Origin: Candidatus Parvarchaeota archaeon
GTDB taxonomy: Archaea > Nanobdellota > Nanobdellia > WJKC01
Direction of reading: 5' to 3'
Assembly (NCBI GenBank): GCA_030615175.1
Contig: JAUWZX010000001.1
Coordinates: 62,566 to 126,565 of the forward strand
Length of the DNA: 64,000 nt
Part shown: positions 1,761 through 54,739 of the stretch, piece after piece
How positions within the stretch are numbered: position 1 is the stretch's first letter
Layout: every line of letters starts with the position of its first letter
Position numbers and translations under genes: made by a program
Notes under the pieces: model-generated
Told to the model about the DNA's origin: nothing
Database searches by the model: none
What the model saw: only the letters and a program-made list of their open reading frames with translations

Positions 1761-2354
1761 ATGAATATTAAAAAAGCAGGATTATTAATAGGGTATGCGA
1801 GGAAAGCAATTAAAGCTAAATTTTCTGGCAGGAGTTACAAGCCTAAGAGCATGCCTGAATCCTTAAAAGTGAAAAGAGGCGTGTTTGTCACATTAGAGAA
1901 GCATCCTTCTAAGATGCTTAGAGGGTGTATTGGTTACGTTGAACCAGTGAAGCCTTTATATAAGGCGGTTATTGACGCAGCATTAAACGCTGCATTCAAG
2001 GATTTGAGATTTAAGGAGTTAAGAAAGGATGAACTTGACCGGTTAACAATTGAATTATCAGTGCTCACGATTCCTGAAGAATTAAAGGGCAGTCCAAGGG
2101 ATTATCCTTTAAAGATTAAAATTGGAGTTCACGGCTTAATAATTGAGTATGGATTAATTAAAGGATTATTACTGCCTCAAGTCGCTGTTGAGTGGGGCGT
2201 TAACCCTGTGCAGTTTCTTAAAATGACTTGCGAGAAGGCAGGCCTGCCAAGTGGTTCATGGATAGACCCTAGAGTAAAAGTATTCACTTTCAAGGCAGAG
2301 TTATTCAAAGAAGAGAAGCCTGGCGGGAAAGTAATTAGGCTTGCGCTTGCCTGA
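1761..2354 (+). CDS. AMMECR1 domain protein
   Basis: 197 aa with RGCIGY motif and LLPQVA segment typical of AMMECR1. Confidence 0.8.
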   Translation: MNIKKAGLLIGYARKAIKAKFSGRSYKPKSMPESLKVKRGVFVTLEKHPSKMLRGCIGYVEPVKPLYKAVIDAALNAAFKDLRFKELRKDELDRLTIELSVLTIPEELKGSPRDYPLKIKIGVHGLIIEYGLIKGLLLPQVAVEWGVNPVQFLKMTCEKAGLPSGSWIDPRVKVFTFKAELFKEEKPGGKVIRLALA

Positions 2355-2841
2355 ACCAGTAATACCACAGAACAAATATTAATATCATTAATCCTTCGCG
2401 CCATAGTATTGTGTGAATGAATTCAGTGATGCTTGGAATAGTAAGCGCCACTAAACTAATTCCTACTAATCTGAGGATGTTAACTGCATAAATAACAGGA
2501 ATTCCTATCAGGGCTTTCTTCTTGCTGCTCCACTGCCTTGGACTCGCTGCCACTAACGCTATGAAAGCCAGTATTGAGCGCCAAGCAGTGCATGCTTCGC
2601 CAATAGCTATTAATTCCCCGTTACTTAACTCTATTGAAGGCATGCCTTCAAAGTCAATGCTTGAATGCTTAACACCAATGATGCTTAAGAAGAAACTTGT
2701 CTGGTCGCGCTCGATTAATTCAAGAGGGTATAAATTAATGTTTAATGCTGCTATTAAGTATAATGGTGCTGCCATGACATTAAAGATTATCAGGAATCTT
2801 AATACCTGCCATAACTGCTCCTGATTTAATGATAAATACAT
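2335..2841 (-). CDS. archaeosortase/exosortase-family transpeptidase-like membrane protein (short form)
   Basis: 168 aa, 4-5 TM helices. IGEACTAWRSILAF matches the exosortase Cys motif (EACSGxRS-like). IYAVNILRLVGIS gives the NxxR Arg motif and FIHTILWREG the His motif. These are the Cys/Arg/His triad in the canonical order. Confidence 0.65.
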   Translation of the reverse strand: MYLSLNQEQLWQVLRFLIIFNVMAAPLYLIAALNINLYPLELIERDQTSFFLSIIGVKHSSIDFEGMPSIELSNGELIAIGEACTAWRSILAFIALVAASPRQWSSKKKALIGIPVIYAVNILRLVGISLVALTIPSITEFIHTILWREGLMILIFVLWYYWFRQAQA

Positions 2842-10036: not shown

Positions 10037-10161
10037 TAATTAAAGAGAACATTGGATGAACTTAAAAATGATGCGTCAGGCATTAAGATTTATTAATTAT
10101 TAATTAATAACTATTTTTTGCATAAAAACATTTATAAATTAATGGTTCATTATTGTTCCAT

Positions 10162-10713
10162 ATGGTTCAAAAATGGATTGAATTTGAGGTTTTACTTAAA
10201 TTGGTTGGTAGAAGTTTTCATTTAAGGGAGTTAGCAAAGCAACTTAAAGCCCCTCATACAACGCTTCTTAGAAAATTGAACGCGCTTGTTAAAGAAGATG
10301 CGTTATTCACAAAAAAGGAAGGTAAGAACAAGATTTATTTTATTAAGAAGGGTTTAGAAGCAAGGAATTATGTTTTCATGGCTGAGTACTACAAACTAAT
10401 TAAGCTAGTTACTAAGTATCCTCAACTAAGCATTATTTTAAAGGATGTTGTTAAGAAGTCGTCATCAGGTCTTATCGTTCTTTTTGGAAGTTATGCGAAA
10501 TTCACTGCAAAACCAAGAAGCGACATTGATTTATTAGTTTTATCTAGTAATAAAGCTGAGAAAAAGAAGATAGAAATGATTAATTCAAGAATTAATGTTA
10601 AACTTGCGTCAAGAATTGATGTTAATAATTTGCTTGTTAAGGAAATTATTAAGGACCACGTAATAATTAAGGGGGTTGAGAGGTTTTATGAGGAAACTAA
10701 AATTCTTGATTAA
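10162..10713 (+). CDS. wHTH + minimal nucleotidyltransferase (MNT) domain protein
   Basis: N-terminal wHTH (LRELAKQLKAPHTTLLRKLNALVKE), then LFGSYAKFTAKPRSDIDLLVL (GSx10-DxD NTase motif). The ORF track starts at TTG 10153; ATG 10162 is more likely. Confidence 0.75.
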   Translation: MVQKWIEFEVLLKLVGRSFHLRELAKQLKAPHTTLLRKLNALVKEDALFTKKEGKNKIYFIKKGLEARNYVFMAEYYKLIKLVTKYPQLSIILKDVVKKSSSGLIVLFGSYAKFTAKPRSDIDLLVLSSNKAEKKKIEMINSRINVKLASRIDVNNLLVKEIIKDHVIIKGVERFYEETKILD

Positions 10714-11170
10714 GTTATCAAAAGATGAGAAGTTGAAATTGGTTAAACCATCTGATGACGTATGCAATGCGTATATCGAGAAGTCTAATAATTCTTTAAA
10801 GTCAGCAAGGATACTTAATGAGTCAATGCTTTATGAGAACTCGATTTCAATGTCTTATTACGCGATGTATCACTCGATACTCGCCTTATTCTTCAAGTGT
10901 GGTATTAAATGTGAGAATCACGCAGCAACGATTATTTTATTAAAAGAGTTATTTAAAGAAAAGAAGTTGTTTAATGTGGTATCTAGAGCTAAAAAGGAAA
11001 GAGTAGACAAGCAATACTATATTGACTTTGAATTAACACGTAATGACTCTCAAGAATTAATAAAGACTGCAGAGGATTTCACAATCCAAATGAGATTACT
11101 TATTAATAAATTCCCTGACGAAAAAATAAAAAGAATTAGAAGTGAACTAAAAGAAGCGTTGAAAGCCTAA
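10688..11170 (+). CDS. HEPN domain protein (partner of the MNT)
   Basis: About 160 aa. SISMSYYAMYHSILALFFKCGIKCENHAAT is typical of PF05168-type HEPN proteins. It overlaps the MNT gene end, and GGGGG/GGTTGAGG lies upstream of ATG 10688. Confidence 0.65.
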   Translation: MRKLKFLIKLSKDEKLKLVKPSDDVCNAYIEKSNNSLKSARILNESMLYENSISMSYYAMYHSILALFFKCGIKCENHAATIILLKELFKEKKLFNVVSRAKKERVDKQYYIDFELTRNDSQELIKTAEDFTIQMRLLINKFPDEKIKRIRSELKEALKA

Positions 11171-11386: not shown

Positions 11387-14300
11387 TTAAGCTTTTTTAT
11401 AAACAACGTATGACACTAGCAGTATTAATATTAAAATGCTTATCCAGTCAGTCGCGCTTGCCATAACATAATTAAACACTCCTGTCGAATAAGTAGTCTG
11501 AACCAACGCAGTGAACAATAAAGTCGCATTATCAACTAATGACTCACTCGTCGCCTGAAAATTAATCGAATAAGTACCTATAGTCACAGGCATCACATCA
11601 ACATAATAAAACGCCTTGCCTCCAGGCTCAATCATTGTCGACAAAATCTTAGACTCACTGTCAACAAAACGAGCCGTTATCCCTGCAGGAATCATTGTCA
11701 AAGTATAATTATGAGGATTATCAGTCGGATTCCTAACCTCCAAATAAGCACTCCTATAACCAGCCTTGCCCTGAGCATAAGCCTGCGACTCAGGATGCAA
11801 ACTGAAATGTGACTCGTAAATATTCACTGTCCTAACATAATCATCCCAGTAATCAGACAAATTAGCCAACACCCTGAAAGTCTTGCTGCCATGAACCACT
11901 GGATTCTCATAAGCATACGAAACATGACCTGCCCTGGACGCATTAGTGCTTAATGCTAATACCCCGTCAATAGTCATCGTAACATTCAACGAGTCTAACG
12001 GGCTTGTATTGCCAGAACACAACACGTAATCAGCTGTTAACGTCTGGTTAGTCCCTATTAAAGTCCTGCTCGGAACATGATAAGCCCCCACTATATCATC
12101 AATACTGAATGAATAATGACTCTCAGTAGTATTACCTAAATCACTTACTGCATAGATTTTGGCATTATAGTCCTTGCAGTCCCATGCCAATGGGGAGTAT
12201 GTCCAGTTGCACCTGTACAGGAATCTCCCAGCGTTTTCGCACGTGAATTCTTCTGAATATACTTCAGCTCCTGCTGAATCATTAACGTCCAGGTGCACTG
12301 CAGTCACTGCCTGCTCTGTAGTGAATACTAGGACTGTTAAGTTCATTTGCTCGCCTGTCCTGTCAACCTTATCGTCATAAGTGAATTGCATTATATCAAA
12401 CGCCACTTCATCTGCTTCCTGAGTAATACTTACTGGTATCTTCTTCCACAAGTAAGTGTTTTCATGGATTTTGTAGTGATGGTCTGAATTATTAAAGACC
12501 GTGAAGTAGAACCTGCCTCCATACGAGTCGCCTGCACTGACTGCTGTCTGCTGGAATCCTATTGGATAATATGAAAACTTTATTAACGAACTCGTAATAT
12601 TGAATTCGTATAATGTATTATTCTCCGCACCCCACGTCTTTTCTTTGAAGAATCCTATAGCATCATGCGTCTGGTTGTTCAGGAATACAACCCAGTCAAG
12701 ACTTGATAATTCTATGCTAAAACTAAGGTTATAATTAGTTACTGTTCCTGAATCATTAATCACGATATTAGTGAAGCGGGTCTTATTTAATGGCATTTCA
12801 AAATACTTTAACCAATCAATTGTTTCACCTGAATTAAACGTTAAATTCTCATCCAACATGAAATAATAAGTGTCTGGCATCGTGATGTTAACCCCCGCCG
12901 GATGACTGCCCTTCACGCTGCCATTGTATGAGTGCACTGCTACTGAAGGAGTCATTTCCAGTTTAGTTGTTAAACCAGTAGCTGTTCTTAACTCACCAAG
13001 CGTTACTGTAGTATCATTATACTCAATTGTTTTTAATCCATAATCAGTAACGTCATCCAACTCATTATGCACGCTGCCTAACTTATCAAACACTGACAGC
13101 ACCTGATACTTTGTAGGACTTAAATCAAGCCTGTAAACTGAATTACTCACATTCCACGTCGGCGCTGTCTCATTAATTATTCCATTACTGTAAGATTTCA
13201 CGTTATGACCTATTGGAGTGTAGTATAACGCGTACACATTACCATCCCTGTTAAAAGGCGAGTCATTCCCTGGCATGTTTATCGGAAAATAAATATCTGC
13301 ATGAGTCAAATTATTATCCGCCCCGCAAGTAGCATTCAATATCATTAACGGGACTTCATAGTAATCACCTGTCGGCAGCACATTAACCACCCTGATTCCT
13401 AACTCGTCTTCAACATCATTATAGTCCCCATCCCCATTAACATCATTGCAGTATGCAGGGTCAGGGAAATCATAACTGTAATTGAATAATTCATTAATCC
13501 TTGAAATATTAGTTACATGACTCATTGACAGGTTAACCTTGTACTTGAATAACTCACTGTCATGACTTAACCACTCATTCTCCCACACCAAACTCAAATT
13601 CTTAACCAGGAACATAGCGTAATTATGCTCACCGTGCTTGCCGTTAAACGCCTGCAAGTGATAATAACCAGTGGCGCCCAGCTCGTAAGTAGCGTTATAG
13701 CAGTTAGTGCCGCACGAAGTCATGTTAATCCTCACCTCAGTAAAATTAGGTTTTATTAACACCACGTTCGGCATGCACTCGCTCGTGACATTAATCCCTA
13801 CAGTGTCCCCTGGATTTAACATCATGCTTGACAAGTTAAACGTCGGAGTCACTGTTGAATTACAATAATAACCAAAGTCGCATACCCTATCAGTTATGAA
13901 ATCCTCATCCTCATCGCACACAACTCCCTGCGGAATAGATACAGCATTACAGCAGCACTTAGGACTTCCTCCCCAATCCTCACCAGTGTCCTCACCGCAA
14001 CACCGAGCCCAAGCATTACGCATAGTACTGTAATCACTGTCCCATGAATATCCTATGGCATCCCAATACATAATATAACTTGAATCGTATCCGTACAGTG
14101 TAAAATATTTAAATGAAACTGGATCTCCATAAAAACCATCAACAAATTGTCCTTTATAATCTCCATCAATCCAACATTTCCACCAATTCGTAGAAGGATC
14201 GCCTGTAGTTAAATCAAATTCTAATTTAAAGTGATACAAATGATCAACAGAATAACTTGCTAATAATTCATGCCAAGTACCATCATAATATTTTAAGCCG

Positions 14301-17300
14301 CCGTCATCATCAAATCTTAAATAAATAGCTTTAGTTGAAGTATCTCTTAAATGAAATATACCCCTTTTATCGTTTACAGAAATCCCCCACCAAAATTCAA
14401 TAGTTCCTGTAGTTCTCACTCCAATATTATTAGTTCCTTGTAATGTATCTCCACTTGCATCTTTATCATATTTAATAACTTTCTTATGACTATCAAAATC
14501 AGAAATTATAGAAATTGTTCCCCCATTATTGTTATATCCATCAAGAAAACCAATATCAGTCCCAGTAGCACCAACAGCATCATCACTGAATGAGTATGTT
14601 GCATCATAGTCTGAAGTAGTGCTCCACGTTAGCCCTTCTGCCTCGCAGTTAGATTGACTCTGGTCCAATGCAGTATAATAATAATCACTGTAGTAGCAGA
14701 TGCTGCCGAACGCGTTAGAATCATTGTAGAAGTAATCACTTGTTGAGTCGTCACCGCAACAGGAAGAGTAAGCAGATGACTTATACAAAGCCATTACTTC
14801 ATTAGCATTAAGAGAACGATTATAGATGCGGGCATCATCAATAGTGCCATTAGCATAATACGTTGTTGAACTACCATGTCTTCCTATTTTACGATTAGCA
14901 AAATTATATGTTAATGAACCTGTTATCCCTGTCTGCTCACCTACATATTCACCATCAACGTAACTTTTTTTTGTTGAACCATCAAAAATAAATCCTATAT
15001 GGTGCCAGTTACCATCCGTTAATCCAGAACCATTATTAGACACGAAACGAGCAGTTGTATAAACACCAGTCCTAAGCTCACCAGTTGATACAGGAATACT
15101 TATCTCTAATTCTTGGCCACCAAATATTATATGGTAACCTCCTGCAGGAGAACCTTCGGATTTGAACCATGCAAAAGCAGAAACTTGAGTTGTGTATCCT
15201 AAATTATTAGATAAATCTATATAATCACCACTACCATCAAAACTCAAAGCATTACCATACTTGCCACTAACCCAGGAAGCATCATAAACTGTGCCGTCAT
15301 TAACGCCTGAATCATCACTCGCAAGCGTTCCTGAGGACTCATCAAAACGCCAATGAGCAACGAGCCCGTCACTGATATTATAAAGCCAGTTATAAGAATA
15401 CTGCTCGCAAACAGTCCGATTAAAATCAATTGACTGATGAGTGAAACTGCCATCCTGACAGAAATAAGTAGTATTACTTAAAGTACCATTATAGAAATCA
15501 TCACTAGCCGCATCATCACCACAGCAAGGAGCATAAGTATTATCACCAACACTGTAATCAGAGTCCCATGAGTAACCAACAGCATCAATGTAAGACGCAA
15601 CAATGTTTGCAGTTCTTTCAAATCTTAAATTATCAACACTGTCCCCTGCATCAAAAAAGGCTCCGTCATTAACAATTAAATCATCATCAACATACCAGTC
15701 AAAAGTGTCAGCAGCACAATCAAAAACCACTTTATGATGCTGCCATGCATTCTCACTAACTGCAACACCAGTATCAGTTAAACTACCCCCTTGATACTTA
15801 TAATTACCAGCATGAACATGCAATGCAAACTGCATATTATCAGCAGCATTATTACTATCAACTAATACCATAAACTGATAATTACCAGACCCATCATCAT
15901 CAAGCCAAGCCCAGAACTCAATAGTGCCTGTAACGACATTGCTAAAATCATTTCCAATATAGTAGTTTTCTGTAAAGTTAATCACTTTGTTATGGCCACC
16001 CCAATTATTAATAACCTCCACAACATTTGTGCCCCCCTCAATAAAATCAATAAAACCAATATTAGTACCAGTAGTGCCTACAGTCTCATCAGTGAATGAG
16101 TAAGTGCCAGGGTAATTAGTATTATTAATCCAGTCATGAGTTAATGCCTCGCAAGCAAACTTGCTTGAATCAGGCTCGATAACACTATAAGTACAGCTGC
16201 CACTACTGCAAGAATAATTCCTGTACTCAGTGCTATACACGCCATCAAGAGTATCACAATCCTCTGAAGAGAAACCGCAGCCAGAATCACTGCAAACACC
16301 AGCATAATACCTAACATTACCAGTACAATAACTGGTTAAATCACAATTAGGACAGCCAGTACCAGCATAATAACAAGTCACGCCTGACGCGCAGTAACCA
16401 TCACCAGCGCTGCCAGAATCACAAGTCAAATAATTAATAGGATAAGCACTTGCAGTGCTGCCATAACTACCCTCATTCGCAGCACCATCCTTTGCCCTGA
16501 CCTTATAAGTATACTGGGAGAAACAATCCAAACCACTATCAACATAAGGACTTGAAACCCAACCACTATCAGTACTACCAGGATTGCTTGAAGTCTCATC
16601 AACCTGATAAGAATCAACACCAGTAGTGACTGTATTTGAACCAGTTGCATTTACTTTATAAACTCTTAAATTCCTGAAAAATGTAGTTCCGTCATTAATT
16701 TCATCCGGGTAATGATAAGCCCCTACTCTAATTTCATGTTCAAATTCCTCTGTTACTGTAAATGTTTCATGAAATGGAGTCCAGTAAGTATTACCTGTTC
16801 CAAAACTCGTGCTTTTAATCCAACTATCAGTTGTATTAGCAGTCCATATGAAAACTGTTGATGTTCCTCCTGCCGCGTTTCTCGTGCTGTCAACTCTTAC
16901 TTCTCCTTCTAATATAAATATGTTTCCTACTTCTAATGAACCCATTGTCACGATATCTTCATCAAGATAGTAGTTATACCCTGTGCCTGAATAATTATGC
17001 GCTTCTATACTATTCTCTAATAAATTATTCACATTCCCACTCTCATCAAACGATTTCAAGTAGTAATAATAATCATCACCAGCGTCACTAACACTGCTCC
17101 AACTCACTTGAAGAGAAGTCGTGGACGCTTCAGTCACAGTGGGCGCGTCGGGTGTGCCAGGAACAGTACCATCAATAGCTCCTGTATCACTGTACGTATT
17201 ATCCATAATGAGAGGAGTGAGTCTGAAATTATCATAATAATACTTGGTTGCGGCAACGCCATTCCTGTCGTCCTTTAAAATAAAAACTCCGCTACTAGTA

Positions 17301-20300
17301 TCAGACCACTTCCTGATAAGCACACAATCAACATAAAACCTAAAAACACTGCCGTCAAAAATAACCTTCCAATGCTGGCCAAAAGCCCCGGCAACAGTAA
17401 CGCCATCAACCTGATAATCACCACTAAGCCTTCGTATGTAATTCCCGCCAACCAGAATGCCATGCTCGCTCCCGTCATTCAATATATCAACCTCGAGCTC
17501 GAAAGGCTCGCCAGAACCAATATCCTCAATCAAAGTCAAATAAGTGTCAGCGCTGCCAGAAGAATTAGACCATAACTCGCCGTCAGTAACACCAACAAGG
17601 CCATCACCCAAAGTAGCAGTCCACACAGGATTACTCGTGTAATCACCATCACTAAAATCATCCCACACGCCGCCAACAGGAGTGTAATTCCCATCAGAAG
17701 TGTTGCTCCTGTAAAAACCATGAGATAACAAACCAGACTGCATATCATTAATAACCTCGCTTTGACTAAGAACACGATTATAAATACGCACTTCATCAAC
17801 AATGCCATTGAAATAGTGTCCAGAACCTGCTGCTGCAGACGCTATAGTTACATCATAAGGATTTGAAACCAAACTAATTGCAGGAGTACTATCTGAACTA
17901 ACTAATAATCCATCAACATACATAACTGCTGTCGTTGCAGAAGCATCCCAAGTCACACTCGCATAATGCCAATCAGTATCATCAAAATCATAAAAAGGAT
18001 CAACACAATTCCCATAAGTTGTATCACAAATATAAAAATTAAGACGACCACTACTCGACCATAATTTCCAACCAACAGTACCATAACTTCCAGTACTCCC
18101 TGTAGCAGCAACAATTGGCTCCCTATACGCTGTAAGATTCTCTGACTTAAACCACACTAAAACAGAAAAATCATTAGCAAGAGAATCCAAATAAGGAATA
18201 TCTTCAACAAGCACAGTATTAGGTGAAACGCCTCCATCAAAACTTAATGCCCCACCATGTTCACCAGTAGTATAAGTTCCACCATTAATACTCCCATCAT
18301 AATCATATATACTGTGGTCTTGAGCCACGCTACCACTACCCTCCTCAAAAGGCAAATACAATAATAAACTGTCATTTCCCTCAACAAAAGTTAAATCCAT
18401 TTCATTATTCACGTTATCAGCAGTCACTGTCAAGTTAGGCGCTGAAGGCCCAGTCCTGTCTAATGTAACATTGCAGACAGTTGAACTCCAATCACTATAA
18501 TGACCCGGACTGCTCTCCACATCCTGTATCCTAACCCTGTAACAATAAACAGTATTATCACTTAAACTGGAATGAGTATAAGACGTGTCAGTACCATAAT
18601 ACCTCTGCGCAGAAGAAGGAGTCGTCTCCTCAACACTATACTCATAACCAGTTGGCGGACTGCCAGACCACGCAATTACCATCTCACCCAAACCAGAATT
18701 CAACGATTCATTATCCTGAAATAAAACAGAATCCAAAGAAGGAGTTGAAAGAGCAGTGCAAAGATAACTACTGCAATACTCACCCGCCGCGCAATCACTA
18801 TCACCACAACAATCACTGCCACTACTACCAACACAAGAACTGGAACAGCAAATACCATCCTGCACGTAATCAGCACCAGACAAACCACTATCACACGAAT
18901 CAGTATCAACACAATTACCGCAACCCTGAGTATAACGATTACTACTAGCAGAATCAACACAAACCTCACCAGACGTTATACAATTAGCATCAGCATCAGT
19001 AACACCACTACCATCATTAACGCAAATACCATCAGCAGAATAAACCCCACTACTAACAGAATTATCACACTGCTTCTCACTAGTCACATCATCATCATCA
19101 CAATCACACTCACTATCAGTCACGACCTCATCAGTACAACAAGAACTGCCACCACAAAGACCATCCCTTAAATAACTCGCGCCAGCAAGAGAACTATCAC
19201 ACTCCCTGCTACCAGAACAACCACTATAATAAGTAGAATCCGCCTTAGAAATCACAGCAGTGTTAGCCCTGCAATCAGTACTAGCGCAAATACCGGCAGC
19301 AGTACCATCAAAAGCACCAACAACCTCACACTTAAGACCAGACGAATCACAACCACACACATCATCACTAGTGCCAAGAGAAGCATCACTGCCATAACTC
19401 ACATCATCAGTGCAAAGAACTCCATCAACACAAGCACGAGTAGAATTATAAAAATTATCACTAGTAGTATCATCACCACAACAAGGATCATTATCACCAG
19501 TAGTAGTGCCAGCAAACCAATCATCCTCACCTGAATTACAAGTTGACTGAGAATCATCAGGCTCACAACTACCACCACAAGTCTCCTCATCACAGCCCTG
19601 ATCCACCCAGGCAGTATAAGAGCAAGTGCAGGAACTAGTGCAAGAACTTGCAGTCCTTGTATACAAGTTACCTGAAGTCAAACCAATGTTCTGACCGCAA
19701 TCACTCGTATAAGTGCAGTCACTAACATTATCACAATCAGCCTCACAATTAGCCTCACTCTGAGTACAAGTACCATCACTCCAACCACTATAAGAACAAG
19801 CACAGGAAGAAGTGCAAGACCTAGTTCTCGTCTGATAAATAGTGCCACTACACTGAGTAAGAGCCTCAGTACAGTCAGTAGCAGAATCACAATCAGCACC
19901 GCAATTAGCCTCACTCTGAGTGCAAGTACCATCAACCCAACTACCATAACTACAAACACAAGCACTAGTGCACGCGCGGGACCTGGTCTGATAAATAGTG
20001 CCACTACACTGAGTAATGGCAGTGCAGTCACCAACAGCATCACACTGAGCGCCACAGGCCTGGGAACACGTCGAAGTACATGAACCGCCAGAACAAGTAT
20101 AAGAACCGCAATCCGCTGTAACACACGTAGAAAAAACGCAAGCTGTTTTCGTACACGAACCAGTCTTCCTAGCACAACTACCACTACATGCTACAGCGCA
20201 GGAAGCACAATACCAAGGAGGGGAAGGAGTCTGTACAGAAGTATAACAACTAGCATACATGGTGTCCTCATTCATGCAAGCATAATTAGTCGAGAAAGCA

Positions 20301-20359
20301 ATGGAAGATAAGGATAGCAAAACTAAAACTACTATTCCTAAACGCGACTTCACCCTCAT
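11387..20359 (-). CDS. giant secreted cysteine-rich surface protein (2990 aa) with Cys-rich modules, FN3, LamG/ConA-like domains and a C-terminal TM anchor
   Basis: Single uninterrupted ORF.
- Signal peptide MRVKSRLGIVVLVLLSLSSIAFS.
- Three CSGTIYQTR..C..C.CSY..W.DG.CTQSEANC modules.
- Four CCG[DE]D modules.
- FN3-like segments (e.g. TSLQVSWSSVSDAGDDYYYYLKS).
- Two Laminin_G_3-type domains (...FNGIVDEVRIYNRVLSQSEV; ...GTIDDARIYNRSLNANEV).
- Many N-x-S/T sequons.
- C-terminus ATDWISILILILLVSYVVYKKA. Confidence 0.85.
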   Translation of the reverse strand: MRVKSRLGIVVLVLLSLSSIAFSTNYACMNEDTMYASCYTSVQTPSPPWYCASCAVACSGSCARKTGSCTKTACVFSTCVTADCGSYTCSGGSCTSTCSQACGAQCDAVGDCTAITQCSGTIYQTRSRACTSACVCSYGSWVDGTCTQSEANCGADCDSATDCTEALTQCSGTIYQTRTRSCTSSCACSYSGWSDGTCTQSEANCEADCDNVSDCTYTSDCGQNIGLTSGNLYTRTASSCTSSCTCSYTAWVDQGCDEETCGGSCEPDDSQSTCNSGEDDWFAGTTTGDNDPCCGDDTTSDNFYNSTRACVDGVLCTDDVSYGSDASLGTSDDVCGCDSSGLKCEVVGAFDGTAAGICASTDCRANTAVISKADSTYYSGCSGSRECDSSLAGASYLRDGLCGGSSCCTDEVVTDSECDCDDDDVTSEKQCDNSVSSGVYSADGICVNDGSGVTDADANCITSGEVCVDSASSNRYTQGCGNCVDTDSCDSGLSGADYVQDGICCSSSCVGSSGSDCCGDSDCAAGEYCSSYLCTALSTPSLDSVLFQDNESLNSGLGEMVIAWSGSPPTGYEYSVEETTPSSAQRYYGTDTSYTHSSLSDNTVYCYRVRIQDVESSPGHYSDWSSTVCNVTLDRTGPSAPNLTVTADNVNNEMDLTFVEGNDSLLLYLPFEEGSGSVAQDHSIYDYDGSINGGTYTTGEHGGALSFDGGVSPNTVLVEDIPYLDSLANDFSVLVWFKSENLTAYREPIVAATGSTGSYGTVGWKLWSSSGRLNFYICDTTYGNCVDPFYDFDDTDWHYASVTWDASATTAVMYVDGLLVSSDSTPAISLVSNPYDVTIASAAAGSGHYFNGIVDEVRIYNRVLSQSEVINDMQSGLLSHGFYRSNTSDGNYTPVGGVWDDFSDGDYTSNPVWTATLGDGLVGVTDGELWSNSSGSADTYLTLIEDIGSGEPFELEVDILNDGSEHGILVGGNYIRRLSGDYQVDGVTVAGAFGQHWKVIFDGSVFRFYVDCVLIRKWSDTSSGVFILKDDRNGVAATKYYYDNFRLTPLIMDNTYSDTGAIDGTVPGTPDAPTVTEASTTSLQVSWSSVSDAGDDYYYYLKSFDESGNVNNLLENSIEAHNYSGTGYNYYLDEDIVTMGSLEVGNIFILEGEVRVDSTRNAAGGTSTVFIWTANTTDSWIKSTSFGTGNTYWTPFHETFTVTEEFEHEIRVGAYHYPDEINDGTTFFRNLRVYKVNATGSNTVTTGVDSYQVDETSSNPGSTDSGWVSSPYVDSGLDCFSQYTYKVRAKDGAANEGSYGSTASAYPINYLTCDSGSAGDGYCASGVTCYYAGTGCPNCDLTSYCTGNVRYYAGVCSDSGCGFSSEDCDTLDGVYSTEYRNYSCSSGSCTYSVIEPDSSKFACEALTHDWINNTNYPGTYSFTDETVGTTGTNIGFIDFIEGGTNVVEVINNWGGHNKVINFTENYYIGNDFSNVVTGTIEFWAWLDDDGSGNYQFMVLVDSNNAADNMQFALHVHAGNYKYQGGSLTDTGVAVSENAWQHHKVVFDCAADTFDWYVDDDLIVNDGAFFDAGDSVDNLRFERTANIVASYIDAVGYSWDSDYSVGDNTYAPCCGDDAASDDFYNGTLSNTTYFCQDGSFTHQSIDFNRTVCEQYSYNWLYNISDGLVAHWRFDESSGTLASDDSGVNDGTVYDASWVSGKYGNALSFDGSGDYIDLSNNLGYTTQVSAFAWFKSEGSPAGGYHIIFGGQELEISIPVSTGELRTGVYTTARFVSNNGSGLTDGNWHHIGFIFDGSTKKSYVDGEYVGEQTGITGSLTYNFANRKIGRHGSSTTYYANGTIDDARIYNRSLNANEVMALYKSSAYSSCCGDDSTSDYFYNDSNAFGSICYYSDYYYTALDQSQSNCEAEGLTWSTTSDYDATYSFSDDAVGATGTDIGFLDGYNNNGGTISIISDFDSHKKVIKYDKDASGDTLQGTNNIGVRTTGTIEFWWGISVNDKRGIFHLRDTSTKAIYLRFDDDGGLKYYDGTWHELLASYSVDHLYHFKLEFDLTTGDPSTNWWKCWIDGDYKGQFVDGFYGDPVSFKYFTLYGYDSSYIMYWDAIGYSWDSDYSTMRNAWARCCGEDTGEDWGGSPKCCCNAVSIPQGVVCDEDEDFITDRVCDFGYYCNSTVTPTFNLSSMMLNPGDTVGINVTSECMPNVVLIKPNFTEVRINMTSCGTNCYNATYELGATGYYHLQAFNGKHGEHNYAMFLVKNLSLVWENEWLSHDSELFKYKVNLSMSHVTNISRINELFNYSYDFPDPAYCNDVNGDGDYNDVEDELGIRVVNVLPTGDYYEVPLMILNATCGADNNLTHADIYFPINMPGNDSPFNRDGNVYALYYTPIGHNVKSYSNGIINETAPTWNVSNSVYRLDLSPTKYQVLSVFDKLGSVHNELDDVTDYGLKTIEYNDTTVTLGELRTATGLTTKLEMTPSVAVHSYNGSVKGSHPAGVNITMPDTYYFMLDENLTFNSGETIDWLKYFEMPLNKTRFTNIVINDSGTVTNYNLSFSIELSSLDWVVFLNNQTHDAIGFFKEKTWGAENNTLYEFNITSSLIKFSYYPIGFQQTAVSAGDSYGGRFYFTVFNNSDHHYKIHENTYLWKKIPVSITQEADEVAFDIMQFTYDDKVDRTGEQMNLTVLVFTTEQAVTAVHLDVNDSAGAEVYSEEFTCENAGRFLYRCNWTYSPLAWDCKDYNAKIYAVSDLGNTTESHYSFSIDDIVGAYHVPSRTLIGTNQTLTADYVLCSGNTSPLDSLNVTMTIDGVLALSTNASRAGHVSYAYENPVVHGSKTFRVLANLSDYWDDYVRTVNIYESHFSLHPESQAYAQGKAGYRSAYLEVRNPTDNPHNYTLTMIPAGITARFVDSESKILSTMIEPGGKAFYYVDVMPVTIGTYSINFQATSESLVDNATLLFTALVQTTYSTGVFNYVMASATDWISILILILLVSYVVYKKA

Positions 20360-20402
20360 AACCTGATTTATTAATTAGGATTCCAAAGTATTTAAATATA
20401 AT

Positions 20403-20747
20403 TCATTGAATAATGCAAGACACGTTTCCCAATAAGAAGACTTCGCAGGCACCTGTTTTGTTAACGCACTCATTAATATACTGCTTCACTTGTGGCTTCA
20501 GCATGAACCAACGGCACTCCTCACAACCAAAAGGATTCCCCAACAATTCCTGGCACAAATCCTGACATTCTGAATAAGATAACGTATCCTCCACATAATA
20601 TGACGCAACCTCCACTCCTGAAGCGTTGGACTCAATACCAGTGAATATAATAGGGAAAAAATAAACAAGAATGAAGAAGATGAACATTAAAAGCGCTATC
20701 GCAGTTATTATAACCATATTAATTGGCAATTTTTGTTTAGCCACCAT
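20403..20747 (-). CDS. small N-terminally anchored Cys-rich protein
   Basis: 114 aa. One TM helix (MVIITAIALLMFIFFILVYFFPIIF), then a roughly 75-aa ectodomain with 8 Cys (CQDLCQ..GCEEC..EC..GAC..SC). Same strand as the two giant genes and lies between them. Confidence 0.5.
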   Translation of the reverse strand: MVAKQKLPINMVIITAIALLMFIFFILVYFFPIIFTGIESNASGVEVASYYVEDTLSYSECQDLCQELLGNPFGCEECRWFMLKPQVKQYINECVNKTGACEVFLLGNVSCIIQ

Positions 20748-20930
20748 GAAATAAATAAAGAAGTATCAGGAATATATAAATATTAAGAATTAAAATAAAA
20801 AAATAATAAATTAGTTGCAACTACTTCATATATCAGTCCTGAAGCCACACTTAATATTAAAGCAATTTTGAGATTGGTATAAACAAAGAACCCTGAATAA
20901 ATATTAATTACTGGTTACGCTAACAATGAA

Positions 20931-21200
20931 GGGCGCATCCTTGGGTTGGCAAGGTAAGCGCTTAAAGGTTTAACTGAACGGGCTCCTCCACCCCGTTGAC
21001 CTGAAAGCACGACTCAACATGCTTAAGGCTGCTTCCTCCCGGATCTGACCCGGTTCACAAGTTGAACCGCCAGACAGGGCGAGGCTTCGCAGAAACCTGA
21101 ACAGGCCCTTAAACCCAAACCAAGTCGTCCCAAGGCATTCAGCCCCACCATAAGGGGGTTTGCGGTAACAGGGAACCCCTAACTCCCCGGCCTAGCACCC
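20931..21200 (-). ncRNA. signal recognition particle RNA (archaeal 7S/SRP RNA)
   Basis: GC-rich non-coding island. The minus strand starts GGGTGCTAGGCCGGGGAGTTAGGGG. It contains the helix-8 signature GGTCAGATCCGGGAGGAAGCAGCC (compare the conserved GGUCCGGAAGGAAGCAGC). The 5' GGGTGC pairs with the 3' GCGCCC, and long helix-5 pairings are visible (CCTTGGG/CCCAAGG, TTTAAGG/CCTTTAA). Ends are approximate to within a few nt. Confidence 0.85.
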
Positions 21201-21222
21201 AAGTAAAGAATTAGTAATTGGG

Positions 21223-21232
21223 ATTTTTAATA
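21223..21232 (-). promoter_or_regulatory. putative TATA box for the SRP RNA gene
   Basis: Minus-strand TATTAAAAAT is centred about 27 nt upstream of the inferred SRP RNA 5' end, which is the canonical archaeal spacing. Confidence 0.35.
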
Positions 21233-21251
21233 CTTTCGGCACATCACAGCC

Positions 21252-24200
21252 CTATCTGCTGCGCTTGCGGTACACAATAAGCGAAGCAAGGATAAGAAGC
21301 AATAGGAAGCTGAAGTAATCAGTAGCTCCTGCAGTGTGAACCCCGAAAAAGCCAGTCTCCTTGGTGAACACTGTTACTTGAAAGCCAATGGAATCAGTGA
21401 TGTTAGGGCATGCGCCAGTGCTCGTGAACGCTAATTGAACGTCGCGCTCGCCAGAGCTTAAAGGAAGCACTGTAAGCCTGATTAACCGCTTAGCGCCTGG
21501 AAGAATTGAAAAAGTTTCGGCATTAAATTCCCTGTTATTAAAAGACTTTTCACCAGTCCTGTAAGTAATTAATAAACCATTATCATAAGATGTTGCAGGA
21601 CTGTACTCAACAGGTATGTTGCCTAGGTTTGTCAAAGTCACTAATACCCTTCCAATCTCATTTAAAGCAACAGGTATTGCAGTAGTAATGCCTGGACTGA
21701 CTGATGAAATATCCAGTGGATTCAATATTGTAAAATTAAAATCCTTTAATAATTCATCCCAGCCGCCAGTCGCAGTAGAGTAAGAACAATTTAATTGCAT
21801 ATTATAAGACTTGCCAAAGTCAGCGCAGCTAAAAGTTCCGAAATCAAAAGTTACTAACCCTGAGTCTCCAACCCTTACAATTGTTGGATTACTAGGGTTT
21901 GGTATGTAACTAAGTGTTGTGTTAAGAATACAGGTTAAGTTCTCAAGCAGTTCATCGCCACTATTTCTTATCAGGAATTCTGTAACGAAGTCGCCTCCCA
22001 AGTAACTGCTGTTAGAATCTGAAGCTGAAATGAATATTCCAGGCAGTCGTCCATTCTCGCATACTGCATCAATATTCCCGTCATTATCAAAGTCGCAGGT
22101 CCCTCCATTATTAATAACAGCGCCATTACAGCAGCAGGTCAGCGTTAAATTGCCAAAGTCATCACTATCCCCGTCATCACCGCAGCACCTACTGCCAGTC
22201 GCTGTTGCACCAGCCAGCCATGTATAACCATAGTACTCGCAAATAGTCTGATTAACATCAATAGCCTGCTCAGTTAAAACACCATCATGACAGAAATAAG
22301 TAGTGGTAGCAAGAGTGCCGTTATAGAAATCATCACTAGCCGTGTCATCACCGCAGCAAGAAGTGTTATTGCCAATAGTTGAACCAGTAAGCCAAGTGTA
22401 ACCACCTGCCTCGCAAAAAGTCTGCCAAGCATCCCTATCACTAGATGGTGAACCATTATAGCACGCGCGACTGGAATTATAGAAATCATCACTAGTCGTG
22501 TCATCACCGCAGCAAGGGCCTTTACTCCCGATGATTCCTGTATTTTCAATAAAAGAAAGAGTGTCATCATAATAATTCGTAACCACAATATCAAGAATTC
22601 CATCTTCATTTAAATCACCTAAAGCAACAAATGATGATTCGGCTCCAGTAGCACCAGTAACTTGAGCGTCAAAAGTGCCGTCACCATTACCAGCAAGGAA
22701 AGAATAAGTATCATCATCATAATTTACAGTAACAATATCAAGATTACCATCATTATTTAAATCACCTAAAGCAATATCTAGAGGATTAGTCCCGACACTA
22801 ATGGTTACTTGAGCATCAAAAGTGCCATCACCATTACCACTAATAAAAGAAACATTATTATCATTATAATTCGCAGTCACAATATCAAGATTACCATCCT
22901 TATCCAAATCACCAATGGCAACACCTATAACCCAATTACCAACAGCACCAGTCACTTGACTATCAAAAGTGCCATCACCATTACCAGCAAGGAAAGAATA
23001 AGTATTATTAGCATTATTTGTAACCACAATATCAAGATTACCATCCTTATCCAAATCACCAATGGCAACACCAAAAGGATTCCATCCAGTAAGAATAGTT
23101 ACTTGAGCATCAAAAGTGCCATCACCATTACCACTAATAAAAGAAACATTATTATCATTATAATTCGCAGTCACAATATCAAGATTACCATCCTTATCTA
23201 AATCACCTAAAGCAAGAAATGCAGGACCACTCCCCGTGGCACCAGTTACTTGAGCGTCAAAAGTGCCGTCACCATTACCACTAATAAAAGAATAAGTATT
23301 ACTAAGACCGTTCGTAACTACAATATCAAGATTACCATCATTATCTAAATCGCCAATGGCAACATCATAAGGTTCGGTTCCAGTAGCACCTGTCACTTGA
23401 GCATCAAAAGTGCCATCACCATTACCAGCAAGGAAAGAATAAGTATCATCATCATAATTCACAGTCACAATATCAAGATTACCATCATTATTCAAATCGC
23501 CAATGGCAACACGCATAGGTGAAACCCCAGTACTGCTCGTTACTTGAGCATCAAAAGTGCCGCCACCAGTAAACCATTCATAACCCTTTAACTCGCACAC
23601 GCCTTGACCGCTCGTGTAATTAATATAGTCTCCAAACCAGTCCTGATAATAATGATGGTCAGCGTCTAAGATAATGCCTCCATAACTGCACATTTGAGAT
23701 GAATTATAGAATATGTCAGTGAAGTCATCATCACCGCAGCACGCATCATTACTGCCAGTAGTGGTGCCGGAAAGCCAGATGTAACCACTTGCCTCGCAGG
23801 CAGTCTGGTTAAAATCAATTGATTGCTCAGTGAAAACGCCATCCTGACAGAAATAAGTAGTGGTAGCAAGAGTGCCATTATAAAAATCATCACTGGCTCC
23901 ATCATCACCACAGCAAGCATCATTATTGCCAGTGGTAGTGCCAGTAAAGTAAATATAACTATACTGCTCGCAAATAGTTTGATTAACATCAATAGCCTGC
24001 TCAGTGAAACTGCCATCCTTACAGAAATAAGTAGTGCTGCCAATAGTGCCATTATAGAAATCATCACTAGCAGCATCATCACCGCAGCAATTAGAGTAAG
24101 CAGATGATTTATACAAAGCAGTTATTTCATCAGCAGAGAGAGCGTGGTTATAAATGCGGATATCATCAATAGTGCCGTTATAAAAGTAAATTGCACCATA

Positions 24201-53134: not shown

Positions 53135-53647
53135 ATGAGGGGGCGGCCGAGCAAGTCAAAGATAAGGGAGCGGATTGCTGCAATAATAAACAAGATTGGA
53201 TTAAGTTATGGTTATGAAATTTACAAATTTTACAAAGAAGTTTACGGCGACGTGACTTCAAGAATTATTTACTACCACTTAAAAAAAGGAGCTGAAATAG
53301 GTGAATTCAACATTATCCGCACTAAAAGCGAGTTAGGCCTTTATAGCTGGGGCGCTGAAAGTGAAAGAGTTTACTACGCAATTGGTCCATACGCTGCACT
53401 AAAGGAAGATGGCTTAATTACTGCTTCAAAAATTAATTATGAACCAAGAGAACTTAAGTACGACTGGGAGGAAGAAATACAAAATTATTATAAAAAATTA
53501 AGGGAAAAAGCAAGGAAAGTCAAAGGCAAGGATGCTGGAAGAATAATCAATAAGTGTGATAAATTAATTAGTTGGTGCAGAATGAGATTAAATAATCCTG
53601 AAGAGTATGTTAAAAGAATAGAATCAATTAAAACCAGTCTACACTAA
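53135..53647 (+). CDS. hypothetical protein with PadR-like winged helix
   Basis: About 170 aa. GYEIYKFYKEVYGDVTSRIIYYHLKKGAEIGEF resembles a PadR-type wHTH. Confidence 0.4.
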   Translation: MRGRPSKSKIRERIAAIINKIGLSYGYEIYKFYKEVYGDVTSRIIYYHLKKGAEIGEFNIIRTKSELGLYSWGAESERVYYAIGPYAALKEDGLITASKINYEPRELKYDWEEEIQNYYKKLREKARKVKGKDAGRIINKCDKLISWCRMRLNNPEEYVKRIESIKTSLH

Positions 53648-54739
53648 ACGCTTGAATAGTTTTTTATTAATAGTGTAAGAATAATAAAATAATAATAAGG
53701 TAAGACCAAGCAATGCGAATTCTGTTAATAATGCATTAAGTCCTATTATAAAGTATAAAAATGTTGCTAAAAAGTTAACAACGGCGTGAAGACCAATCCC
53801 AAGGTACAAGTACTTAATATTCTTTAAGGCTTTAAAAACAATAAAAGACAAAGCCACATGAAGCAGGATTGCTATATTCCTCTCAAAAGCGCCTAAAAGC
53901 GAAACGCTGAGAAGCACTGGCTGGTTAAGCAGTATGTAAGAACCAATAGTAAATGCGTATATTAATAATGCTTCAAAAAGGCCCCACCCAAGACCAAACA
54001 TTAAAGGATTCTTCTTAGCTGACTTAATGTGCTTAAGCAATAAATAGCGGATGACTTCTTCAAAAACTCCTGCAAGTAAGGATGATAAAAACAGGATAAT
54101 GATGTAATAAGGTATCTGGTAAATGAATGGGAATATTTGCTGTCTTAAGAATAAAGCAATAAACCAGCCAGCGCAGCCAATCATAAAGGCAGTCCAATAC
54201 TTCTTCTTAAAACGCGCAAAGTAAAAACTAATAATTAATACAGGGATAATGCTTAATAAAACACTAATCCATGAAAGGCTTGAATCAATGATTGGAATAA
54301 CAAACCCTTCATCAAGACATCTGGGAAATAATTCCTCTAATGAATCATTTAAAAGACTATAAGTATGACAACACCCGCCAAGTGAAATCAAATCAATATT
54401 ATCCTCTGACAAGTTAATAATTGAATTATTAACAAACCATGACAACTCAGTCCTTAATACTCCCTCCCAATTAATGCTGTCAACAGCCACGCCCTTATCA
54501 GACAGTACTGAAAATTCTAAAGACTGATTAGTAATCCTTAAGCCAAGATTAGAATCATTTAACGCTATTAAATAAACATAATTATTATCATAATAATTAT
54601 AGCGGGCGCTGGTTAGTAAGCCAGTCTGCAAATAATATAATGAAACATTAAGACTAGTTATTTGAACTCCATTAACAATGCAGGCAAGGCATGGAGAAAA
54701 AAGGAAAGTAATTAATAACAATAATAAAAATTTTTTCAT
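53639..54739 (-). CDS. CPBP/YhfC-type intramembrane metalloprotease with N-terminal extracellular domain
   Basis: 366 aa. Signal peptide, a roughly 150-aa ectodomain, then TM helices carrying GVFEEVIRYLL (EExxxR), FERNIAILLH and GLHAVVNF motifs. Confidence 0.65.
   Translation of the reverse strand: MKKFLLLLLITFLFSPCLACIVNGVQITSLNVSLYYLQTGLLTSARYNYYDNNYVYLIALNDSNLGLRITNQSLEFSVLSDKGVAVDSINWEGVLRTELSWFVNNSIINLSEDNIDLISLGGCCHTYSLLNDSLEELFPRCLDEGFVIPIIDSSLSWISVLLSIIPVLIISFYFARFKKKYWTAFMIGCAGWFIALFLRQQIFPFIYQIPYYIIILFLSSLLAGVFEEVIRYLLLKHIKSAKKNPLMFGLGWGLFEALLIYAFTIGSYILLNQPVLLSVSLLGAFERNIAILLHVALSFIVFKALKNIKYLYLGIGLHAVVNFLATFLYFIIGLNALLTEFALLGLTLLLFYYSYTINKKLFKRLV

Follow-up and report, generated by a model that had tools for sequence, protein, structure and literature searches.

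Conserved C-terminal tails of two giant surface proteins in a DPANN archaeon and their possible recognition by an archaeosortase

Among the closest described systems is PGF-CTERM/ArtA of Euryarchaeota, in which Sec-exported surface proteins terminate in a motif, a helix and basic residues and the enzyme belongs to the exosortase/archaeosortase family. According to a previous study, Cys, Arg and His form the proposed catalytic triad of this family, and conserved intramembrane positions mark recognition by a membrane-embedded protease (10.1101/2023.06.07.544157). Small dedicated systems, such as ArtB/VPXXXP-CTERM, ArtE, XrtH, XrtX and pacearchaeosortase, have enzymes of ~150-170 residues and few targets, which are located nearby. 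Plain C-terminal anchors, such as Sulfolobus SlaB (cited in PMC6098224), combine a signal peptide, a large extracellular part, one C-terminal helix and a positive cytoplasmic end. Here, we analysed 64 kb of DNA (the window; G+C content 38%) from the 727-kb genome of a 'Candidatus Parvarchaeota' archaeon, whose relatives belong to the DPANN archaea (metagenome-assembled genomes, MAGs, of 'Candidatus Parvarchaeota' and Nanoarchaeia). The window amounts to 9% of the genome, and counts for this genome refer to it alone. It carries two giant genes, A and B, whose products end in similar tails, as well as an archaeosortase gene. The tail may well be a clade-restricted sorting signal and anchor for an archaeosortase with few targets, a reading to which we give an even chance; whether it is such a signal or a permanent anchor, it falls in a known kind of element.

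The shared C-terminal tail and its carriers

Gene A (11387-20359), identified by its open reading frame (ORF) and Pfam matches, encodes a giant, putatively secreted surface protein of 2990 residues, and gene B (21252-28472), located directly upstream of A in the direction of transcription, encodes a 2406-residue paralog. Both genes and all parts of them described here are on the minus strand. A ends in ...YSTGVFNYVMASATDWISILILILLVSYVVYKKA and B in ...KETGFFGVHTAGATDYFSFLLLLILASLIVYRKRSR. The initial annotation had noticed the similar tails, giving for A the span 11387-11490, which covers the final 34 codons and the stop codon, short by one base. This observation is well founded, as the similarity is far beyond chance: BLASTP aligned A2910-2989 with B2323-2403 at E = 1.3e-7, and for the 17 residues ahead of the helix, 0 of 100,000 ungapped shuffles scored as high as the real sequences, with p = 1e-5 for the helix part. 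The layout of motif, membrane helix and basic residues at the extreme C-terminus was also found as described, on two proteins whose N-termini look typical of Sec signal peptides. The putative signal peptide of A, MRVKSRLGIVVLVLLSLSSIAFS, is located at 20291-20359; signal peptides were judged from inspection alone, and a basic n-region followed by a hydrophobic core was seen at the starts of A, B and the database proteins P0019, P0030 and P0032.

The tail is the last part of a C-terminal module of ~115 residues, which was modelled with AlphaFold2 (AF2) from the last 135 residues of A and 17 family sequences (mean predicted local distance difference test score, pLDDT, 81). In A, an immunoglobulin (Ig)-like beta-sandwich domain (11501-11749), which precedes the tail in every aligned member, shows AF2 strands at residues 16-98 of the model (pLDDT 85-95). 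It is followed by a juxtamembrane stalk, QTTYSTGVFNYVMAS (11456-11500), with a conserved [ST]-G-x-F (TGVF, 11474-11485), where AF2 places a beta-hairpin over TTYSTGVFNYVM with moderate confidence (pLDDT ~71-75). Next comes 'ATD' (11447-11455), in which the Asp (11447-11449) alone is conserved family-wide; this residue, Asp116 of the model, is the last one ahead of the helix and its predicted N-cap. In the predicted transmembrane helix WISILILILLVSYVVY (11399-11446; residues 117-134 of the model, pLDDT ~95), a Trp is located at the membrane interface, and L(+7), S(+12) and Y(+16), counted from the Asp, are conserved. The protein closes with the basic, presumably cytoplasmic end KKA (11390-11398). 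The B tail, KETGFFGVHTAG-ATD-YFSFLLLLILASLIVY-RKRSR (21255-21362; coordinates verified, aligned with A), has the same parts, namely TGFF (21345-21356), ATD (21318-21326), the helix (21270-21317) and the basic end (21255-21269). The whole B module, Ig-like domain plus tail, spans 21255-21611 and matches positions 2-118 of the module profile at 140.7 bits. Pfam assigned no domain to the C-terminal module, and a Foldseek search with it returned generic Ig, PapD and transglutaminase-C folds only, none at E < 1e-3.

The conserved positions were counted over 20 family members. The Asp is D in 19/20 sequences and E in the remaining one; relative to it, -11 is G in 14/20, -9 is F in 17/20, +1 is aromatic in 16/20, +7 is L in 18/20, +12 is S in 12/20 and +16 is Y in 15/20, and K/R followed by K stand after the helix (13/20 each). 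These columns are in fixed register, with hardly any length differences among the 20 sequences. Positions -1 and -2 are variable (T, L, W, F, I). The ATD[WY] core put forward in the initial annotation did not survive this comparison, since 'ATD' is confined to one lineage (A and B of the window, the close fragment P0001 and locus L001), and other members have PGLD[WL], [PS][AS]WD[WF], SGFDI, SGIDN, PDFDY, DALDY or SGLEF at the same place. The module consensus reads as an Ig-like domain, an S/T-rich stalk with [ST]-G-x-F, [PS]-[GA]-hydrophobic-Asp-[W/Y], a helix of 15-16 residues and Tyr-Lys/Arg-Lys. If the tail is a sorting signal, its signature would be G-x-F...D together with the helix positions rather than ATD[WY]. 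Between A-type and B-type proteins the tail is 27-33% identical and the adjacent Ig-like domain 17-19%, an excess that is in part due to the Leu/Ile-rich composition of the helix. Judging from these alignments, the tail is under tighter constraint than would be expected of a generic anchor.

Conservation is not confined to the last ~30 residues, as had been claimed initially. The C-terminal alignment of A and B extends over ~80 residues, into the Ig-like domain, and in relatives the homology unit reaches ~115 residues. Nor are the preceding sequences otherwise unrelated. A is composed of a Cys-rich N-terminus, two LamG (Laminin_G_3) regions (PF13385, E = 2.9e-44), CCGDD repeats and the C-terminal module, and B of a Cys-rich N-terminus like that of A, ~20 FG-GAP repeats (FG-GAP_3, E = 4.5e-110) and one LamG region. 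The Cys-rich N-terminal ~280 residues (19514-20335 in A and 27657-28436 in B) are 59-68% identical in this genome (A residues 9-282 vs B 13-272, 59%; a 239-residue core, 68%), and contain repeats such as QCSGTIYQTRT..CTQSEANCGADCD. The LamG/CCGDD region, of ~330-550 residues, is 37-48% identical between the two proteins, and many further, weaker matches occur at the level of repeats. In the A/B pair of L041 the N-termini look unrelated, and the sequences suggest a recent exchange between the N-termini of A and B. Orthologs of A are present in L001, L040, L041 and L043, and the order B then A recurs in the window, L040, L041, L043 and L044, and probably in L039. L043 and L044 come from the assemblies GCA_054039275.1 and GCA_053993015.1, respectively.

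Further carriers were sought with a module profile built from A, B and P0001. When 1.84 billion representative proteins were searched exhaustively with HMMER, 23 matches at E ≤ 0.001 were obtained; a 35-residue tail by itself would have been too short to reach significance in a search of this size. Sixteen of them match the whole module (the fragment P0027 over its last ~72 positions), and in all 16 the match reaches to within a few residues of the C-terminus. The other seven (P0029, P0033 and P0035-P0039) match the Ig-like part only, as internal repeats without the family tail; they appear unrelated and were rejected as family members. All ~16 carriers are giant proteins of DPANN archaea with the same Ig-like domain ahead of the tail, and each is of A-type, with the signature QTTYSSG-x-F-[DN]-Y..., or of B-type, with VTGF...T[GS]FF-N-[VI].... 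The A-type and B-type proteins, which are giant, adhesin-like and exposed on the surface, form two paralogous families of ancient origin that are confined to a single DPANN clade (Nanoarchaeia/'Parvarchaeota' MAGs). With a word-indexed homology search, neither a single module sequence nor a 6-sequence profile retrieved anything but P0001, and a metagenome scan with patterns taken from the Ig-like domain, not the tail, found no contig beyond one already known.

The archaeosortase gene and comparison with described systems

The candidate processing enzyme is encoded at 2335-2841 (minus strand) and has 168 residues. The initial annotation had assigned it to the sortase family, and this is borne out by a match to the exosortase/archaeosortase family model TIGR04178 (46.6 bits, cutoff 23) and by PF09721, which is precomputed on all of its homologs. 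Cys84 occurs in 15 of the 16 homologs compared, including the window protein, and Arg124 and His143 are invariant among them. Scores for all subfamily models are below their cutoffs (XrtX, 54.4 bits, cutoff 170; XrtH, 48, cutoff 86; ArtB, 44.4, cutoff 150; ArtA, 37.3, cutoff 75; pacearchaeosortase, 21.1, cutoff 80), so that no named subfamily could be assigned among the ArtA-H, pacearchaeosortase, heimdallarchaeosortase and XrtH/X models. Four DPANN homologs that were scanned likewise fall outside the named subfamilies. From its sequence, the product is a genuine archaeosortase with intact catalytic residues, as yet unclassified. Reference genomes contained 33 related sortase loci, all in DPANN archaea but the two weakest, which are bacterial (L036, L037).

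In four of four close genomes with enough context, the window included, the sortase gene lies 6-9 kb downstream of the stop codon of the A-type gene and on the same strand. The enzymes of these relatives are 65% (L001/L005), 51% (L040/L007) and 54% (L041/L002/L003) identical to that of the window; L042 is too short to judge the linkage.

The tail was also compared with curated signals. None of the 14 tails scanned with the CTERM models of NCBIfam release 20 (PGF-, PEF-, VPXXXP-, Loki-, Heimdall-, GlyGly- and others) scored above cutoff; sub-threshold matches fell on the helix and basic part (GlyGly-CTERM, 15.3, cutoff 15.5; Heimdall-CTERM, 13.4, cutoff 24; Loki-CTERM, 13.2, cutoff 19.9). The tail and enzyme share with PGF-CTERM/ArtA the type of carrier, the tripartite layout and an enzyme of the same family with Cys, Arg and His. 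No spacer separates the conserved Asp motif from the helix, which is also the case in PGF- and PEP-CTERM, and the G-x-F of the window family stands about nine residues further upstream. However, TIGR04126, the PGF-CTERM model, matches no tail and the invariant P-G-F is missing from the window family; the enzyme is much shorter than ArtA (168 vs ~270-300 residues) and scores at half the ArtA cutoff; and there are only two carriers per genome, which are paralogs, with a short, Lys-rich basic end. P-G-L-D, present in several relatives of the window tail, presumably resembles the P-G-F or PGF[E/G] of PGF-CTERM. The enzyme is similar in size to those of the small dedicated systems, whose few targets are encoded nearby, and XrtX, XrtH and ArtB are its best sub-threshold matches. 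Nevertheless, their subfamily cutoffs are all missed, their cognate signals match no tail, and the window-type targets are 6-9 kb away with housekeeping genes between. The plain anchors resemble A and B in overall architecture, but the window family keeps specific residues and the helix register across deep paralogs, and Sulfolobales are without an archaeosortase, whereas the window genome has one.

Haft 2023 (10.1101/2023.06.07.544157) gives eight criteria for tripartite sorting signals, which concern the position and number of the tails, their three parts and their carriers. The tail is at the extreme C-terminus in A, B and the ~16 database carriers, and its copy number is minimal, with exactly two copies per visible region (window, L040, L041, L043). 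As for a short conserved motif, only the Asp and the Phe nine residues upstream are kept, and homology continues for ~80 residues upstream of the motif. The segment that follows is strongly hydrophobic and transmembrane-like (15-16 residues, confidently modelled as a helix), and a basic end of the 2-5 residues expected is seen in KKA and RKRSR; at least two K/R occur in the last eight residues of 16/20 members, and a few have only one. Signal peptides, expected on most carriers, appear by inspection on the five proteins named above. Carrier pairs that have nothing but the signal in common were not found among the members, since the Ig-like domain is common to all. As for homologs without the signal, one LamG protein at the corresponding position of L045 lacks the helix and is possibly such a homolog. 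For the alternative that Haft allows, a dedicated system with nearby genes, the distance of 6-9 kb in 4/4 genomes is recurrent, but the genes are not adjacent and the region is generally syntenic.

Several other genes of this region deserve mention. A nucleotidyltransferase gene (10153-10713, plus strand; PF01909) and a HEPN gene (10676-11170, plus strand; PF05168), which overlap by 38 nucleotides in a toxin-antitoxin-like layout, are located between gene A and the rsmB-like gene; at the corresponding position of L001, L040 and L041 no gene is listed with PF01909 or PF05168, so the pair in the window is probably an insertion. In the closest relative, the Lon/Mg-chelatase-type ATPase (L001:17071-19122, minus strand) contains an intein (PF14890) and a free-standing gene nearby (L001:12262-12873, minus strand) has faint LAGLIDADG matches; the counterpart of the ATPase in L002 has no intein match. 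Elsewhere in the window, 53639-54739 (minus strand) encodes a protein of 366 residues that matches the YhfC intramembrane metalloprotease (PF10086, E = 7.6e-11) and whose N-terminus resembles a signal peptide. This second protease of the membrane could in principle act on surface proteins.

Possible roles of the tail

If the tail is a sorting signal, A and B would be exported by Sec via their N-terminal signal peptides, and the C-terminal helix would stop transfer and retain the protein in the membrane; the basic end would face the cytoplasm, and Asp and Trp would lie at the outer interface, as the sequence and the AF2 model suggest. The conserved juxtamembrane and intramembrane positions would then be read by the archaeosortase of 2335-2841, which, by analogy with ArtA and PGF-CTERM, may cleave off the helix, so that a lipid anchor would hold the mature protein; mature A would in that case be without WISILILILLVSYVVYKKA. 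The system would be a near-dedicated archaeosortase with few targets. Consistent with the initial proposal of a new sorting signal, no curated CTERM model matches and the positions are in fixed register. In addition, A and B of the window lineage both have A-T-D where relatives have G-L-D or A-W-D, and their tail DNA bears no mark of recent gene conversion. Further points in favour are the intact archaeosortase in the window, the higher identity of the tail than of the Ig-like domain between A-type and B-type proteins, and the Aenigmatarchaeota tails described below. The co-distribution with the sortase family that had been suggested is seen in four related genomes, within a region of general synteny, and is missing within 10 kb in one further genome.

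A close rival of this reading is a C-terminal transmembrane anchor that is permanent, inherited by descent and never cleaved, with the archaeosortase acting on other, unseen proteins. On this alternative, which we regard as quite conceivable, the Asp caps the helix, Trp/Tyr sit at the membrane interface and Tyr-Lys-Lys marks the cytoplasmic boundary. A number of observations weigh against a sorting signal, and several of them speak for such an anchor. There is no contiguous signature of at least three invariant residues, and the residues beside the Asp vary widely, even where the sortases are 51-65% identical; the AF2 model offers structural causes for the conservation, namely capping of the helix by the Asp and a hairpin turn at G-x-F. 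The homology covers ~115 residues, and every tail seen is preceded by the same Ig-like domain. No third protein family with the tail, and none without the Ig-like domain, was found among the 1.84 billion representatives or in 764 kb of DPANN loci; in the latter, a tail-only hidden Markov model (HMM) built from the 20 sequences and applied to 1775 ORF C-termini gave at least 51 bits for members and at most 6.7 bits for everything else. The initial annotation had named restriction to the two paralogs as a sign of simple shared ancestry. The carriers are indeed two paralogous families only, so common descent is enough to explain the similarity of the tails.

The sortase linkage is weakened by several findings. 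Housekeeping genes (an RsmB-like methyltransferase, UPF0113, a DEAD helicase and an ERCC4 nuclease) stand between sortase and A, and gene order is kept on both sides of the region, so that the proximity may merely reflect the collinearity of related genomes. L043 carries A and B and has no sortase within 10 kb downstream. In L045 the sortase is 52% identical to that of the window, and a LamG protein 3.6 kb upstream of it (L045:1-1272, plus strand) ends in '...NNVTISYEIQ', without helix or tail; it is possibly a tail-less relative of the A-type protein. Around sortase homologs of at most 43% identity no such module was found within 10 kb. Moreover, better substrates may exist elsewhere, with only 9% of the genome visible. 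What a permanent anchor explains less well is the retention of L(+7), S(+12), Y(+16) and a precise helix length between paralogs whose neighbouring domains are less than 20% identical. Plain anchors usually conserve hydrophobicity rather than specific residues. Furthermore, an archaeosortase gene has stayed intact in a genome of just 727 kb, and the window shows no tripartite tails besides these two.

The kept residues might instead mediate association within the membrane, either pairing of the A and B helices or docking to another membrane partner, without any proteolysis. The conserved order of B then A in five loci and the roughly helical period of D, +7, +12 and +16 are in keeping with this idea, which we nevertheless consider improbable, as tail identity between A and B is barely higher within genomes (mean 0.33) than between them (0.27; four genomes) and no co-variation is detectable. 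At the variable position next to the Asp, A and B agree in the window (T/T) and L041 (L/L) and disagree in L040 (L/W) and L043 (F/W), which gives mixed support to a joint variation of the two tails within genomes such as co-evolution with the sortase would predict. Finally, the tail could have been copied between A and B by recent recombination, for which the high identity of the N-terminal 280 residues in this genome might be cited. Yet the tail DNA is just ~46% identical, the ATD codons themselves differ at synonymous sites, and both tail types occur separately in other genomes. Gene conversion as the source of the common ATD was rejected on the DNA identity, and we hold such an origin of the tail to be very unlikely.

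DPANN archaea live attached to other cells and are mostly unable to make their own lipids. Contact with the host is most plausibly made by their giant surface proteins. If the tail is read by the archaeosortase, this would add a new enzyme-signal pair, provide an annotation rule for giant proteins otherwise labelled 'hypothetical', and mean that proteins are covalently anchored to lipids that most of these organisms do not make themselves. If it is a mere membrane anchor, the result is an ordinary one, yet the uncatalogued C-terminal module of ~115 residues is useful for annotation.

Possibly related tails in Aenigmatarchaeota and other features of the giant proteins

In three Aenigmatarchaeota loci (L011, L031 and L033), proteins encoded 5-9 kb from a sortase homolog end in ITG[FM][FL]..NP..helix..[KR]2-4 (RRKK or EKKK). 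Their genes are L031:17167-18330, L033:18462-19196, L033:15930-17771 and L011:14608-15204, all on the minus strand. The 244-residue protein has only the 38-40-residue tail in common with the 387-residue protein (75% identity) and the 613-residue protein. Such tail-only sharing is classic sorting-signal behaviour, and these tails are a candidate uncatalogued signal; no NCBIfam CTERM model matches them. Like the window family, they have T-G-hydrophobic-F/L, a spacer of ~10 residues, a helix, a basic end and a DPANN archaeosortase homolog nearby, but their carriers are otherwise unrelated, N-P stands where the window family has Asp, and the window-family tail HMM fails to detect them. An hhalign comparison aligned TG with TG over 39 columns (P = 1.8e-4 for a single comparison, probability 49%), scores of this kind being inflated by helix composition. 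The alignment makes it somewhat more likely that recognition depends on G-x-F and not on ATD, although the evidence for this is thin.

Taken further, DPANN archaea may have an archaeosortase branch of their own with related signals ([ST]-G-hydrophobic-F, a ~10-residue spacer, helix and basic end), which would be modular in Aenigmatarchaeota and fixed on two giant adhesin-like proteins in Nanoarchaeia/Parvarchaeota, the enzyme lipid-anchoring proteins that these episymbionts probably use to hold their hosts. We offer this scheme tentatively and think it less likely than not.

Apart from the C-terminal module, two elements without a Pfam match were noticed in the giant proteins A, B (11387-28472), P0019, P0021, P0024, P0026 and P0028. 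An uncatalogued Cys-rich unit, 'CCGDDxxSDDFYNxT....C..G......D.N...CE..GY.W', is found throughout them, and an element of the form 'CCCN[AG]V.I..G..CD.D.D' is located a few hundred residues ahead of the C-terminal module. Long alternative-frame ORFs at 19678-20184 and 27821-28414 are by-products of the N-terminal repeat of A and B.

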